From: an uncultured delta proteobacterium
GTDB taxonomy: Bacteria; Desulfobacterota; Desulfobacteria; Desulfobacterales; JAFDCJ01
NCBI GenBank assembly: GCA_963769935.1
Contig: CAVYNY010000032.1
Coordinates: 215,621-279,620 of the forward strand
DNA: 64,000 bases
Direction of reading: 5' to 3'
Shown here: piece by piece, positions 58,030 through 63,945 of the stretch
Position numbering within the stretch: position 1 is the first letter of the stretch
Layout: every line of letters begins with the position of its first letter
Made by a program: the position numbers and the translations under genes
The notes under the pieces: model-generated
The model's database searches: none
The model's input: the letters and a program-made list of their open reading frames with translations, nothing else
Told to the model about the DNA's origin: nothing

Positions 58030-58448
58030 ATTTGACGAGATTTGACGTGGTAAAATAAAAAAGGCTTTCAGCACAACTGCCTGAAAGCCTTGATTTTATT
58101 GGTGGGCCGTGTTGGAATCGAACCAACAACCTACTGATTAAGAGTCAGGTGCTCTGCCTAGTTGAGCTAACGGCCCATGCGCATCTCATTTTTAATAACG
58201 GCGTTTGGTACCAACTTTGCAGCCATATGTCAAATTTTTTTTTGAATGTGCGCGATAAAAGTTTGTTGTATGTGGTCGGTTGTCCCTTGTTAAAAAAATC
58301 GCTGTGCCAAAAGCGCTGCGTGCAGTGAGCACTTCGTTTTAGGAGCGCTGCGCTTGAGGCAAAAAAGGATTAATCCATTTTAAAATGTAAGATGCGCCTA
58401 AATTTACGCGTTTTTCAACCACCGCAATTGTTTCGTCTGCCAAATTTC
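58030..58448. repeat. 419-bp direct repeat, left copy
   Basis: Near-identical to 63527-63945; contains tRNA, promoter and hairpin. Confidence 0.95.
58100..58176 (-). tRNA. tRNA-Lys(CTT)
   Basis: GGGCCGTTAGCTCAACTAGGCAGAGCACCTGACTCTTAATCAG...TTCGATTCCAACACGGCCCACCA. Confidence 0.96.
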
Positions 58449-59030
58449 TATGGCACCTACAGAATCTCTGAATGATCGCATACACCATTCGGTAGTGTCC
58501 TAATTTGGGAAAGAAATAAAGGAATGATAAAAATCAATCAAGATTAAGAGTTTGCAAAAGAATCAATGCTTGGAGAAATTCCAGCTTCATAATACTGTGC
58601 ATTTCTATTGAGATAGAGGGAGATTTGCGTATCGTTTTTCTGTTTTTAGTAGTTTCTTGTATTTTGAATTACATAATTTACATACATATTTAAATCCGTT
58701 TCTTTTGTCATTTATTTTTTTAAGCAAATCGGACCGTTGTATATTCAAACTTCGTTAAATCACAATAACAAACTTTATTAAATTTAGATTTAAAAGTGGA
58801 ATCAATGTTTCCATATCAGATAGCGTGTAAAGAGATGGTACAATATTTTTTACACGCATCTTTTCGTGTAGTCAAAACATGAAAAAAATAATTATCAAGC
58901 AAATAATTACCCGCAAGCTTATATTTAGGTTCCTAATTTTATTAGTATAATTGTCTTGTGATTTTTTATCGTAATAAACTTGCTGTTTCAGATTATTTTT
59001 TGCAAGATGTTATCTGGTAGAATCGATTTA

Positions 59031-59502
59031 TTAGAAATTTAAATCAAGAGGTCTTATTTAAACCGACTTATTTTTTAAGGTAGCTCCTATTTTTTTCATT
59101 GGTTTCGTGCGATAAGCTAATTCTGTTAGGGCTTTGTTCCATATCCTTCAAAACTTTCTAGCACCTCATTAATGATTTCTTTTTCTTCTTCCGATATTTT
59201 ATTAAAAGGAATATTATTTTTTTTGCTTATACTGTAGATTATAAATTCGTCCCCGGTATTGGATATGTTTGCGCCCTCTTTAATAATACCTTTTTTTTCC
59301 AAATCATCTAAATATTTATATATTTTTTTATCAAAAGGACCGTAATGATAACGAACATATTTGAAATCTGTTATTTTATTCATCCCCTTAGGATGGCGAC
59401 AAGATCCACAAGGTAGGATAATTTCATCAAGCTGGTAACTGATACATCGGGATGATTTTTGATGATATAAGTTAATGTCTGAAGGGTTTTCAATTGAGGC
59501 AT
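59031..59502 (-). pseudogene. Panacea/DUF4065 (SocA-like) antitoxin, frameshifted
   Basis: TSLMKLSYLVD, ITDFKYVRYHYGPF, EEEKEIINEVLE..LTELAY..PM across frames. Confidence 0.75.
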
Positions 59503-59574
59503 CTTGATATTCCCTGTAGTGTTAAATTATTGGGAATGTACCGAAACAAGGGTGTTTTGTCAAGATGCTAATTT

Positions 59575-60396
59575 TTAAATTGAAAGTTCAATCAAATCTC
59601 CAATTGTCCACAGTCTATTATCAACTTTGGCTTCCATTGCCGGTGTCACATCCAAAGTTTTATGAATCCTCACAAAATTATAATGAGCAAAATGCAATGC
59701 AACAGCAGCTTTCAGGTTTTCAAGCTTTTTACTAAAAGCATTCGTTAATCTTGTGAATCGCCGCATTGACATTCTCATGGTTAAATTTTGACGTTCAACA
59801 TAGGAAGTGGAAATATCTTTATAATTTGGATTACCAACAATAACGTTTTTTTCGACATCGACGACTTTGGGTGGGCTGTACCTACCGGGTCCAATCGCTT
59901 CCGCTTCATATGACTTTACAATCTGACCATAATCAACATTATCACCAAACCCACCTTCAACAGCATCAACATAATGGCAAGCATATCAGAGCTTAATTGA
60001 ATTCTATTAGAAAGCCGAGATGATAAATCATCTATGAATTGATGTTGCCATATCAATATCACGTTTTCCGACTTTATGTGTAGGAACCAATTTAGAATCG
60101 GCATCAATGGCAACCCATGTCCAGAAATCACCACATTGATTAATATCATCTGTTGGTTTTAAATGGCGCTGTTTCTTTCCGACATAACACCATATTTCAT
60201 CGACCTGGATCTTTTTGCATTTCAGATTCACCATTTTTTCATCCATGAATTTTTGACAGGCATTGCCGACATGAACCATCAAGCGTAGTAATTGTATCCC
60301 TATGAACGCCTGTCATTCTTTCAGTGGATCTAACAGAACATCCCTCGACAATGCCGAAATAACCATTTCTTGTTTGTGGGATTTTAATTTATTCAT
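59575..60396 (-). pseudogene. IS1-family DDE transposase with several frameshifts
   Basis: HTH (EGCSVRSTERMTGVH), IQVDEIW, WTWVAIDADSKL, LSSD, STSYVERQNLTMR..RRFTRLTNAFSKK. Confidence 0.9.
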
Positions 60397-60436
60397 TGCA
60401 ATATCCTTAAAATGTATTATATTATTAAAATGAGTT

Positions 60437-60509
60437 TAGTGGAGCCACCGGGAATTGAACCCGAGCAATCGGGTGTAAACCCCAACTACAAGCGCCCAAC
60501 TTTGCCCCC
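60437..60509 (-). ncRNA. Candidate tRNA-like RNA resembling the tmRNA tRNA-like domain
   Basis: GGGGC..GCTCC-ACTA acceptor with G3.U70, T-arm GGGTTCAATTCCC, 9-bp central stem. Confidence 0.5.
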
Positions 60510-60656
60510 ACAGTTTTATTTAAAGGGGAAACAGGTTGAGCCACCAACTTGATTCCCCTTTTTTATTAGCATGTTATTGTTTTCATGGTATATATAATAA
60601 TTTTATTATATTCTGTCAAGAAAAAAAGCTTGCAAATATAATATTTTTGTTATATT

Positions 60657-61035
60657 ATGTGGTCAAATATTCAACTCTACGATTATATTAACCAAAACGG
60701 AAAAAATATTGTAAAAGAATGGGGATTGTCTTTCGAGAAAAGATTTCGAGGAAAATTAGATAGTAAGGTTGATATGCTATTAATCGCTGGCGCCAATCTT
60801 CGCCTAAATTATTGCGAGATTTACTAAATGTAAACATATTAAAGAATTAGCTGTTAATGGTACTATAGCACTTAGATTAATGTTATGCCGTGGTCCTTAT
60901 AATATGATTAAAGAATTCACATTTTTACTTGGAGCAATCGAGAAAGATAGAAAATATATTCCATCTAATGCCCCCAAAAGGCAGATAAAAATAGAAATAA
61001 TCTGATGAATGGGAACGGAGGAAGATGTAAAACAT
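60657..61035 (+). pseudogene. RelE/Gp49-like toxin, frameshifted
   Basis: LYDYINQNGKNIVKEW..HIKEL..ALRLMLCRGP..FTFLLGAIEK; upstream of the XRE gene. Confidence 0.55.
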
Positions 61036-61501
61036 GAAAGATTTAATCAATAGTCTCATCAATAATTTTAAAGATAAGGATTATCGACATGGATATGCTG
61101 ATGAATTTTTAAATGCGAGTATAGCAACTCAAATCAAGGTCTTGAGAGAACAGCGGGGATGGAATCAGAAAGATCTAGCCGATAATACCAATATGAAACA
61201 ACCAAGAATATCCATATTAGAAAATGTTAATTATTCTTCATGGAATATAAAAACATTGAGGCGATTGGCCGAGGCGTTTGATTTAACATTATGTGTGTAT
61301 TTTGAAAGTTTTGGCAAAAGACTGGATGATATAATTAAATTTAGTCGGGAAAATCTTGAACGGCTATCATTTGATGAAGATCCAGCTTTTAAAGATGATA
61401 ATGATCAAATAAAAGCTACTATAAATAATGCATTATTGGCGACTAATGAAGAAATAAATAATAATAATAGTTTTGGCGAGGGACCCATAGATCTTTTCTA
61501 A
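61034..61501 (+). CDS. XRE/HigA-like HTH protein
   Basis: QIKVLREQRGWNQKDLA..MKQPRISILE..TLRRLAEAFD. Confidence 0.88.
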   Translation: MKDLINSLINNFKDKDYRHGYADEFLNASIATQIKVLREQRGWNQKDLADNTNMKQPRISILENVNYSSWNIKTLRRLAEAFDLTLCVYFESFGKRLDDIIKFSRENLERLSFDEDPAFKDDNDQIKATINNALLATNEEINNNNSFGEGPIDLF

Positions 61502-61604
61502 GTATCGTGACAAGGAAAAGATAAATTCTATAAAGAGATTTTTAGAACAAGAAAATGCCAATAAAGATATTAAACAATTTGCAATGAAATGAAAGGTCAT
61601 TAAT

Positions 61605-62260
61605 ATGGATTTAATATCAGTTATGAAGGCACGTTCTGTTTGGTTAATACGAATAGTAGATTTAAACCCAAAAGGTTTATATTTAATTAATTTAGGAAAG
61701 GCAATTTCAGAAAGATACCATTTTTTAACAATCCCTAAAAAAGAAGATATTGAACAAGAAAGAACTAAAGTTTTCTAAGGGCATGTTCATCAATAATCAG
61801 CAAATTCAAATAGGTGTTGGCTTGAGCAGCTTTCAATGATGGATTAGTGGTCGATACACGATCGTCAACAACTGATTCAGATGCATTTCTTGTTGATCTA
61901 CTTGATTGGGCATCTGATAAATGTGAACTTGTTCCTTACGAAAATATACTATCAAAGAGGATGTATTATAGTGAATTATTCGTAAAAACAGATAAAACGT
62001 TAAGCCTGCTCAATCCGAAGCTAACTGATCTAAAAAAAATCTTGATAATTCAATTCCGTGGAAAGTAAATCCAGAAAACCCAATTAAAACAGCGGGTATT
62101 ATAATGGCCTCAGATCCATCCTTACAAAATGCTCCTGGCATGTTCATTTTGAAAGAGCTGCAAATACTCCATTTTCAGAAAATAGATATTATTCTGCAGC
62201 ACCCTTGCAAACAGAAAAGCATTCGAACTTTTAAACAAATTCGAAAAAATATTATCATAA
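61605..62260 (+). pseudogene. Hypothetical passenger gene, frameshifted
   Basis: Starts MDLISVMKARSVWL; coding fragments continue to ..RYYSAAPLQTEKH..KFEKILS*. Confidence 0.5.
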
Positions 62261-62560
62261 ATGAAAACAGAAATAAAAACCGCAATATTAAATCTCCATA
62301 AATGCAAGTCAAAATGGATAGAATCAGTTCCAGTTAAAGAAACCTTCCAAGGTCAAACTGTATGGGAAGGAATTGTTCAAGTATTTGATTTGATAGATCA
62401 CCCAACAGCTAAAAAATGCTATGCATGGTCATATGAAACGGTGATTCAGGGAAAAGAAAGTTTGTTGCGGTATTGCATCAAGATCCGGTTAAATCACCGG
62501 AAGATGCTGTGAGGGCATTTATTGTTAGTGAATATAAAACCAAAAAGGGGATAGAAATAA
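62261..62560 (+). pseudogene. Hypothetical passenger gene with a frameshift near 62440
   Basis: ESVPVKETFQGQTVWEGIVQVFDL..CYAWS, then FVAVLHQDPVKSPEDAVRA. Confidence 0.65.
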
Positions 62561-62805
62561 TGGCCAATAAAAAAAGAACGTCAAAGATCATCGCATCGTT
62601 GTCCGCAAAAATCCTTCAAGATGATAATGCATCAAATATACAAAAACAATTGGCCGCTTCGGCCCTCGCTCAATCACGCACAAAAAAACAAACAGGCGCA
62701 GAGATGGAAGATATCGCTTCAAGGGTATTAAAAAGTAAAAAATATAGTAACGAAACAAAAAGCCTTGCAGCTTCAGTCTTATCTCAATCTGTTAAAGATA
62801 GATAG
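62560..62805 (+). CDS. Small basic protein with two internal repeats
   Basis: KRTSKIIASLSAKIL..KQLAASALAQ / KQTGAEMEDIASRVL..KSLAASVLSQ. Confidence 0.75.
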   Translation: MANKKRTSKIIASLSAKILQDDNASNIQKQLAASALAQSRTKKQTGAEMEDIASRVLKSKKYSNETKSLAASVLSQSVKDR

Positions 62806-62808
62806 AAT

Positions 62809-63081
62809 TTAACATTCTATAAGATCTGTTGTTTTTAATATGCTGCGCGCAGGTATATGAATAACGCCAGAAACTTGTAATGCGTCTCCATTTATATCAC
62901 CCATATTTGGCGCAAGCGATTTCACATCATCATCATCACAAATAAGAAATCCAACAGATGCACATAATATAGGATCCGTTTTTTTATAATTACTCAAATA
63001 TTGCCATTCTGGCGATGGCCTTACACTATCAAGCCATTCGATCATCACCAACCTAACGTCAACTTTTTTTTTATTTTTCAT
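62809..63081 (-). CDS. Hypothetical protein
   Basis: Intact 90-aa ORF (LVMIEWLDS..CASVGFL) just inside the right IR. Confidence 0.7.
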   Translation of the reverse strand: MKNKKKVDVRLVMIEWLDSVRPSPEWQYLSNYKKTDPILCASVGFLICDDDDVKSLAPNMGDINGDALQVSGVIHIPARSILKTTDLIEC

Positions 63082-63526
63082 TTTAAACCCAAATTAGGAC
63101 ACTACCCACCATTCGTTAAATTCCCTTAAAAAATCCAAGTTCAGATCTAAATTTCATTTGACCAAAAAAGACTGGGACTACATTACCACCAAAGGTCTTG
63201 AAACCATCAAAGAGCACGCCTATCAATTTATAAATTCCAGGGTTGCGCCTGCTTTTCCGAAAAATGATGGCAAGCAAACACCGATGAGAGGGCATCCGGT
63301 CTTCATCGCTCAACATGCAACCGCCACCTGTTGTCGGGGATGTATTTCAAAATGGCATGGGATCGAGAAGGGTAGAGCGCTGAATAATTCTGAGGTCGAT
63401 TATATTGTGAGGTTGACTATGGGGTGGATAGAAGGGCAGATGGATTATTGAGAGTTGATGTATAGCGTATATTATGGATATATTTGATCAGTAGATTTGA
63501 CCGCAAATTGACAGCAAAAATGTTTA

Positions 63527-63945
63527 ATTTGACGAGATTTGACGTGATACAATAAAAAAGGCTTTCAGCACAACTGCCTGAAAGCCTTGATTTTATTGGT
63601 GGGCCGTGTTGGAATCGAACCAACAACCTACTGATTAAGAGTCAGGTGCTCTGCCTAGTTGAGCTAACGGCCCTTGAACCATTCATTTTTAATGAACGCG
63701 ATAGGTACCAACTTTGTAGCCATATGTCAAATTTTTTTTTGAATGTGCGCGATAAAAGTTTGTTGTATGTGGTCGGTTGTCCCTTGTTAAAAAAATCGCT
63801 GTGCCAAAAGCGCTGCGTGCAGTGAGCACTTCGTTTTAGGAGCGCTGCGCTTGAGGCAAAAAAAAATTAATCCATTTTAAAATGTAAGATGCGCCTAAAT
63901 TTACGCGTTTTTCAACCACCGCAATTGTTTCGTCTGCCAAATTTC
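63527..63945. repeat. 419-bp direct repeat, right copy
   Basis: Near-identical to 58030-58448. Confidence 0.95.
63597..63673 (-). tRNA. tRNA-Lys(CTT), second complete copy
   Basis: Identical to 58100-58176. Confidence 0.96.

Follow-up and report, generated by a model that had tools for sequence, protein, structure and literature searches.

Why should an insertion sequence carry, directly in front of its transposase gene, an RNA that resembles an alanine tRNA? The question is raised by a short feature of the window, by which we mean the whole stretch of 64,000 nucleotides analysed from the genome of an uncultured delta proteobacterium. The first-pass annotation had seen there, inside an element of the IS1 family, a miniature tmRNA-like RNA reduced to the tRNA-like domain (TLD). 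We find instead a structured RNA family which is supported by covariation and apparently undescribed; no description of it was found in the main texts of the open-licence literature. The element and its genes are arranged as follows.

58491..63106, no strand: IS1-family passenger-carrying element, 4,616 bp, 33% GC
59126..59383, minus strand: SocA/Panacea-domain passenger piece
59575..60396, minus strand: IS1-family transposase with four frame changes in the assembly (intact relatives have 273 aa)
60657..61501, plus strand: divergent passenger pair, a frameshifted Gp49/RelE-like gene (this likeness is a lead only) and an HTH gene at 61034-61501
62261..62512, plus strand: gene of about 100 aa, present in 39/41 complete elements of the IS clade

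The location within an IS1-family element holds. The transposase is of the DDE type, the terminal inverted repeats (58491-58509 and 63088-63106) are 19 bp long and perfect, an 8-bp target duplication lies outside both ends, and the GC content of 33% compares with 51% in the genome. The transposase of the relative L001 matches PF03400 with 39.4 bits, and the best match of the transposase is NF033558 with 68 of 100 bits, below the equivalog cut-off. The gene of about 100 aa may be an accessory of transposition. Within 59126-62512 frameshifts are seen in the transposase, the Gp49-like gene, the gene after the HTH gene and the 100-aa gene, which may reflect decay or long-read errors. A 419-bp segment with a tRNA-Lys(CUU) is present twice (58030-58448 and 63526-63944, 96% identity); the duplicates bracket the element together with a DUF4186 gene close to the contig end and may represent a small island at a tRNA or an assembly artefact. 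The tmRNA of the host genome sits on another contig, and no further copies of the RNA were found in the window's own genome.

Re-reading the minus strand from 60509 to 60437 returned the sequence, coordinates and strand as annotated. The RNA consists of these parts.

60437..60509, minus strand: tRNA-like RNA; acceptor 60509-60503 / 60447-60441 with G3·U70, A73 at 60440
60490..60502, minus strand: mini D-hairpin, 4 bp with a GG-containing loop, directly after acceptor base 7 and without the U8-A9 linker
60465..60489, minus strand: central anticodon-like stem-loop with a 9-bp stem
60448..60464, minus strand: T-arm, 5 bp with a 7-nt UUCAAUU loop

The acceptor has the G3·U70 pair (60507 and 60443), the discriminator A (60440) and the single mismatch that had been ascribed to it, and the central stem and the T-arm are likewise present. 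Of the stemless, GG-containing D-loop described earlier the GG remains, whereas the region is not stemless, as 60502-60490 form 4 bp. The 3′ tail reads ACTA, therefore CCA is not encoded in this copy; 23 of 79 family copies do encode it. The RNA ends 40-43 nt upstream of the transposase ATG at 60396, in agreement with the distance of about 40 nt given before. Taken in isolation, the 73-mer has as its lowest-energy structure a rod and not a cloverleaf (z -2.3), and our assignment of the cloverleaf is made because of covariation, not single-sequence folding.

An Rfam scan of the window RNA and its relatives gave no family at gathering score. The tmRNA model RF00023, a check proposed in the first-pass annotation, is indeed the best match of the window RNA (23.7 bits, E 1e-6), but it stays under the gathering score of 47, as do all family copies (22-31 bits). 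ARAGORN, proposed as well, makes no call for the RNA in the window and labels several family copies as stop or pyrrolysine tRNAs. Labels of this kind in environmental genomes can therefore be wrong. A family covariance model built without the window copy scores the window RNA with 38.4 bits, members ranging from 38 to 87.

This model was made from 29 sequences of an 81-sequence alignment, and the same subset of 29 served for the pair counts below. From a transposase search of GTDB contigs 80 of 574 relatives were kept, and in 10 of the 80 the covariance model places the RNA directly upstream of the transposase; the RNA also precedes a second transposase copy in L046, and weak matches occur in L043 and L079. 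The pattern used to search metagenomes prescribed the T-loop, the acceptor 3′ end and the first codons of the transposase, so that U70 and A73 were forced, and left the loop and the 5′ strand free, G3 not being forced. It returned 83 loci with the RNA in 83/83. After merging duplicates and leaving out L043, L046, L143, L209, L257 and L306 as non-standard, we work with 79 distinct transposase-adjacent RNAs, which are related, so that counts over them are not independent. Collecting the regions upstream of homologous transposases, as had been advised, thus gave the RNA in the same position, 30-69 nt before the ATG, and with covarying stems. None of the outcomes named beforehand as refuting (a motif absent in relatives, lack of covariation, an att remnant) occurred.

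The RNA is rare. A pattern search of 401 genomes of the window's phylum gave 9 matches, namely 4 ordinary tRNA-Ala genes and 5 family copies (5/401 genomes); the transposase follows in 4 of these 5, and in L416 its first codons are followed by unrelated sequence. A first look with the covariance model, at low sensitivity, found the RNA in 2 of 150 phylum genomes, and a covariance-model search of 40 relatives did not find it. BLAST of the RNA region gave no match among plasmids and a 28-nt stretch of a tRNA-Ala as the sole phage match. Named hosts are mainly of the Desulfobacterota type, with one Myxococcota and one gammaproteobacterial label; the nearest relative, L409, has an RNA 86% identical to the window copy. 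On a quick, unrooted tree of 124 transposases the presence of the RNA needs 4 changes, compared with 41 when labels are shuffled. The idea of a mobile tRNA mimic with alanine identity, which had been put forward for the window, is thus borne out by a family that is conserved and inherited with its transposase clade. The same tree contains a mostly alphaproteobacterial subclade of 27 rows without the RNA, which is therefore dispensable.

How well is the structure conserved? Acceptor pairs 1-4 (G1-C72, G2-C71, G3·U70 and G4-C69) are invariant in 79/79, acceptor pairs 5-7 and T-arm pairs 49-50 covary among the 79 copies, covariation is seen in the central stem as well, and the 7/5 acceptor/T branch is found in every copy. 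In the 29 sequences 95.6% of the cells are paired and 10 of 19 pairs have double changes, a level reached in 0/500 shuffles; slid controls give 47-65% paired cells. G3·U70 is present in all 15 copies that were found via the transposase or the window DNA and not via the RNA pattern, and L043, in which pair 4-69 is flipped, still keeps it. The window copy is somewhat degenerate, as a functionless remnant of an att site or a tRNA would be. Such a remnant has next to no probability and is refuted by covariation: across RNAs that are 58-86% identical to the window copy, conservation extends to both halves and is accompanied by compensatory changes, G3·U70 is retained throughout, and the 3′ end of the window RNA has no match to the tmRNA or tRNA-Ala genes of the host. 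That the RNA is a protein-coding sequence was also ruled out, as frames and lengths vary.

The D region bears on the TLD. A D-stem of at least 2 pairs is formed in 78/79 copies and of at least 3 pairs in 56/79; its second position shows all four standard pair types, and in L409 the stem has a compensatory change relative to the window copy. The copies have 2.71 standard pairs here, compared with 1.76 (maximum 2.08) after exchange of the 5′ strands among the sequences; this swap control was used for the D-helix, a first control having been weak (3.67 versus 3.29). Base 8 is G in 75/79 and U in 3/79. The CGAC D-loop of the host tmRNA and the GAC connector each occur in 0/79. Because the D-stem covaries and both motifs are missing, we regard the RNA as a compact cloverleaf and not as a TLD, which in the portions of PMC4131195 and PMC8012679 drawn on here is described as lacking an anticodon stem-loop. 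A tmRNA consisting of the TLD alone, which would bind SmpB and either inhibit trans-translation or mimic it, would explain the alanine acceptor, the T-arm, the GG-containing D region and the best Rfam match below gathering, and it has a precedent in the mycobacteriophage DS6A RNA (PMC4131195, in the part used). Against it stand the paired D region, the missing motifs, the RF00023 score and the invariant anticodon-like loop, and we consider it highly unlikely. Four short viral RNAs (L148, L212, L214 and L314) retain both tmRNA motifs, that of the D-loop and that of the connector, with a hairpin alone between them and are likely further TLD-only tmRNAs; with our family model they score 29-30 bits, outside the range of the members.

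The anticodon-like loop, which had escaped the first-pass annotation, is closed by two G-C pairs (78/79 each) and comprises nine bases ending in N-A-C-A-N, of which A, C and A are invariant in 79/79. It can be read in two registers. In the window UAC (60477-60475) is followed by A, which gives a valine reading, and one base earlier UUA (60478-60476) is followed by C, which gives a stop reading. In the valine register the family has UAC in 75, GAC in 3 and CAC in 1 of 79 copies, so that variation is confined to the wobble base, and base 37 is a purine. The metagenome scan, in which the loop was unconstrained, likewise gives UAC 80, GAC 2 and CAC 1 in 83/83 loci, and the last seven loop bases are often identical to those of the host's own valine tRNAs. 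The price is a 9-nt loop in which two additional bases precede the triplet; for the canonical 7-nt register, pairing is seen in 18/79. In the earlier register the triplets are UUA 62, CUA 13, UCA 1, UGA 2 and CGA 1, that is, stop anticodons in 76/79 with three serine exceptions. Here the outer two loop bases pair in 43/79, often by wobble, and leave seven, at the cost of an invariant C37 and of C or G at position 33 in 26/79. Viral relatives favour this register (U33 in 24/28, A38 in 26/28); in it they include five UGC (alanine) members and UUA or CUA in 8/28. In the host genome, tRNAs for pyrrolysine and selenocysteine are called at G000:C11:285724-285797 and C3:6328-6425; a stop-reading mimic would therefore compete with native recoding. 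The loop was also considered as a -35 box and rejected, as no -10 box was seen by eye at the right spacing.

Under both readings the predicted acceptor identity and the loop disagree. According to the portions of PMC11415595 and PMC9976931 on which we draw, AlaRS needs no more than G3·U70 and takes no account of the anticodon, and charging with valine is hindered by a G·U at 3-70. The valine identity set A35, C36 and A73 (PMC9976931, same portion) is invariant in the family. A canonical tRNA for alanine or valine, which would have the U8-A9 linker, a full D-arm, a 5-bp stem with a 7-nt loop, U33 and a purine at 37, is not at hand, given U8 in 3/79 and a loop which is fully canonical in neither register.

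On the opposite strand we predict a second transcription unit, of which the first-pass annotation had reported neither promoter nor terminator.

60396..60425, plus strand: predicted antisense sigma-70 promoter, by consensus match only, aiming into the RNA 3′ end
60430..60565, plus strand: predicted antisense RNA of about 135 nt with putative ends, fully complementary to the tRNA-like RNA
60522..60564, plus strand: hairpin and T-run, predicted antisense terminator by its polarity
60591..60666, minus strand: candidate sense promoters for a transcript of hairpin, RNA and transposase, with -35 boxes at 60666 and 60619

The putative antisense -35 box (60396-60401) overlaps the transposase ATG and the -10 box lies at 60418-60423 or 60420-60425. 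Between RNA and ATG a facing sigma-70-like promoter is found in 67/79 copies as against 7/79 on the sense strand; 12.2 are expected in shuffles, and the controls give 7/51 for RNA-less relatives and 12/108 for canonical viral tRNAs. By the promoter rule applied, a facing promoter is absent from L079 and L084. The end of the -10 box is 8-9 nt away from A73 in 34/67 copies (16 nt in the window); antisense transcription would therefore start opposite the CCA end. The hairpin that had been noticed before the RNA is real (60522-60561, z -3.7, 0/200 shuffles). On the sense strand it has an A-run 5′ in 57/72 and a T-run 3′ in 2/72 copies, the hairpin not being called in 7 more; this fits a predicted terminator of the antisense strand. 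For the predicted sense transcript, L003 and L007 have a 12-of-12 promoter match at the equivalent place. A type VIII-like layout of two complementary RNA genes may be reflected in the promoter-like sites in 67/79 and the terminator-like sites in 57/72.

Could the whole arrangement merely restrain transposition? The fold would then be a processing or stability signal acting in cis in the leader, and the antisense RNA or its promoter would do nothing but keep the transposase low. We consider this rather doubtful. The fixed position of the RNA before the ATG fits such a role, as do the antisense -35 box, which overlaps or abuts the ATG, the rarity of a forward promoter adjoining the ATG (7/79 with the RNA versus 20/51 RNA-less relatives) and weak matches of the mascRNA model to family RNAs in the Rfam scan. 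However, processing needs neither G3·U70 nor the invariant ACA loop, each kept in 79/79, and the antisense RNA would leave the ribosome site of the transposase uncovered. Masking of this site by the acceptor CUCC was ruled out, since the acceptor is paired in 72/79 folds. The same fold further occurs away from IS1 starts, in phage loci and in L209, where fold and facing promoter border an IS1595 transposase at its 3′ end; the pair is therefore not tied to the IS1 start.

The passengers offer another view. The 23 distinct complete RNA-carrying elements are 2.7-6.9 kb long and share a common terminal repeat type, and their passengers vary: among 85 scanned proteins there are restriction-modification, NYN, SocA/Panacea, PemK, P63C and HTH proteins. 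With such neighbours, an enlarged and irregular loop and the invariant valine identity set, the RNA could be a decoy or sponge which is charged or bound and never decodes, titrating ValRS, AlaRS or EF-Tu or acting as bait for toxin RNases and anticodon nucleases; among irregular tRNAs some receive an amino acid yet play no part in translation (PMC5389517, in the main-text portions). But the comparison of complete elements shows no nuclease or toxin family common to all, their core being the transposase and the 100-aa gene only, the loop triplets of viral relatives are diverse, and a protective decoy would need no antisense silencer. A decoy thus appears unlikely to us. The 100-aa gene was rejected as a partner of the RNA, as it is present in 17/18 RNA-less elements. 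Very improbable, too, is a useful recoding tRNA, i.e. a mild alanine suppressor benefiting element or host under tuning control by the antisense RNA. The stop and pyrrolysine labels of ARAGORN would suit it, and the mistranslation caused by tRNA-ProX can help under stress (PMC10404621, in the part used). Yet the transposases of relatives are intact and end in TAG about as often with the RNA (15/21) as without (12/18), and no dedicated synthetase is encoded among the 85 passenger proteins.

We tentatively prefer, at somewhat less than even confidence, that the RNA mimics a tRNA, is charged with alanine and miscodes, and that an antisense RNA neutralises it, the two forming an RNA-only toxin–antitoxin module of the transposon. 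Our comparison establishes the fold together with its invariant bases and constant position, and the promoter-like and terminator-like sites; both transcripts, processing, charging, decoding and toxicity we infer. Further points in favour of the module are the fold with its facing promoter in L209 and, as described below, the arm copies of viral relatives, the leader branch and a second irregular tRNA in the slot of the RNA. The upstream promoter would yield a single transcript that spans the hairpin, the mimic and the transposase. From it an RNA of 70-75 nt could be released by RNase P, by trimming of the 3′ end and by addition of CCA; RNase P, CCA addition and RNase III would act here in their general roles. 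AlaRS, reading G3·U70 and not the anticodon, would charge it with alanine. The mimic may then insert alanine, within this model slightly more probably at valine codons than at UAA and UAG stops, for which the chances are slightly below even. The antisense RNA, about 135 nt long and with its start facing the CCA end of the mimic, would anneal and either block folding or lead to decay; as a side effect, its convergent promoter may damp transposase expression. Once the element is lost or silenced, or under stress, the stabler mimic would be left unopposed. Several points weigh against such a module. The loop is non-canonical in both registers, and because the U8-A9 linker is missing the use of the mimic by the ribosome is uncertain. 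Promoters in divergent orientation are frequent in this IS family even when the RNA is missing: in 25/51 RNA-less relatives one lies on the reverse strand no more than 126 nt from the ATG. The dispensability of the RNA also counts against the module, as do the viral relatives with neither facing promoter nor arm copy (21/31), the absence of a facing promoter from L079 and L084, and the inactivity in translation of most allo-tRNA(UAU) tested (PMC5389517). The window copy itself has the acceptor mismatch, a frameshifted transposase and no CreT-like leader.

Such a leader, also not part of the first-pass annotation, characterises one branch of the family. In 26/78 copies a strong ribosome site and AUG-AGA-AGA are found 107-133 nt upstream of the RNA. 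The reading frames comprise 3-80 codons in all three registers (in L360 AUG-AGA-AGA-UGA), and two hairpins and a pseudoknot follow (96.1% paired, 18/30 pairs with double changes in 23 sequences). These leaders, at L001:4310-4456 and 25 other loci, are outside any CRISPR locus seen. L540, a locus picked up solely through the RNA pattern, combines the leader with the transposase. A second type of irregular tRNA is present at L079:4416-4490, L084:1586-1660 and L088:1364-1437 (2/401 phylum genomes), behind a similar promoter and hairpin. By eye it has an ACU/GCU serine anticodon, a short variable loop and an arginine-type D-loop; in L079 it occupies the slot of the RNA, and in L088 likewise beside the window's passenger genes.

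Phage tRNA-Ala(UGC) genes share the architecture of our RNA family, as does a broader group of viral sequences whose loops differ. Among these phage genes, those of L103, L123, L126, L134, L153, L157, L170 and L195 have the mini D-hairpin immediately behind the acceptor stem. Upstream near-copies of the anticodon arm occur in 6/31 viral relatives, compared with 2/108 canonical tRNAs and 0/29 mini-D tRNA-Ala; the copy varies together with the sequence of the loop, and in L420 it lies behind a divergent promoter. In L420/L143, L470, L481, L473 and L435 the fold starts right after a promoter and the arm copy lies 90-200 nt upstream, apparently within a divergent small-RNA unit. Neither facing promoter nor arm copy is present in 21/31 viral relatives. 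Tandem pairs of irregular tRNA-like genes are seen at L043:4337-4491, L457 and L506.

Taken more widely, these RNAs might constitute a new class of RNA-only toxin–antitoxin systems, in which an alanine-charged mimic miscoding valine or stop codons is held by an antisense antitoxin. Spread by IS1, IS1595 and phages, it would have interchangeable anticodons and antisense partners in cis or in trans, and in one branch the AGA-AGA leader would possibly couple release to the supply of tRNA-Arg. We consider this wider claim rather unlikely. Should the module of the transposon function as proposed, miscoding itself would serve as the toxin, and an IS element would secure its maintenance through a pair of small RNAs.

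Control of transposases by antisense RNA is familiar from RNA-OUT of IS10 and similar systems, which have a convergent promoter near the transposase start; in contrast to these, the antisense RNA predicted here would cover the tRNA mimic and not the ribosome site of the transposase. Closer in their irregularity are the allo-tRNAs of Mukai et al. (PMC5389517, here and below in its main-text portions), which also combine identity and anticodon that do not match, have diverse anticodons, are toxic in some cases, and occur in a similar setting near toxin–antitoxin genes and a transposon-related ORF; most of the allo-tRNA(UAU) tested were inactive in translation. Their branches are 8/4 or 9/3, whereas ours are 7/5 throughout, so that our RNAs share the mismatch and the mobile setting but not the allo-tRNA branch. 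They also differ from allo-tRNAs in being about 70 nt long, in the mini D-hairpin, in being fixed in one IS clade and in the predicted antisense unit, no antisense partner being described in the said portions. Our proposal would nevertheless offer a concrete mechanism for a question raised by the allo-tRNAs, namely why mobile elements carry tRNAs with mismatched identity and anticodon. A dual identity is likewise known for tRNA-ProX of Streptomyces and Kitasatospora, whose mistranslation was shown and which is toxic in E. coli; it has proline identity and lies beside a ProRS isoform (PMC10404621, in part), whereas our family has alanine identity, is IS-borne and has no synthetase that we could find.

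In CreTA, a type VIII system, an RNA toxin acts on translation, as we propose for our family, and 26/78 of the relatives have the CreT hallmarks named above, so that CreT-like leaders are now placed outside CRISPR loci. CreA is a crRNA-like repressor which needs Cascade (review PMC12737573, in the part used for these statements), unlike the cis antisense RNA that we predict as antitoxin, and the shared core of our family is a tRNA mimic; the window copy, which has neither the ribosome site nor the tandem AGA leader, is no CreT. The TLD-only tmRNA of DS6A (PMC4131195, in part) is also small, mobile and equipped with an alanine acceptor and T-arm, but our family differs from it by the absent TLD motifs, the D-stem and the conserved anticodon-like loop. 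The phage mini-D tRNA-Ala(UGC), for which the open-licence literature yielded no paper, share architecture and G3·U70 with our family and are plausible ancestors of it; in contrast to our RNAs, their anticodon matches their identity, and a facing promoter or arm copy occurs in 0/29. A compact tRNA body of alanine type that occurs in nature and whose loop varies could be of use in work on the genetic code.
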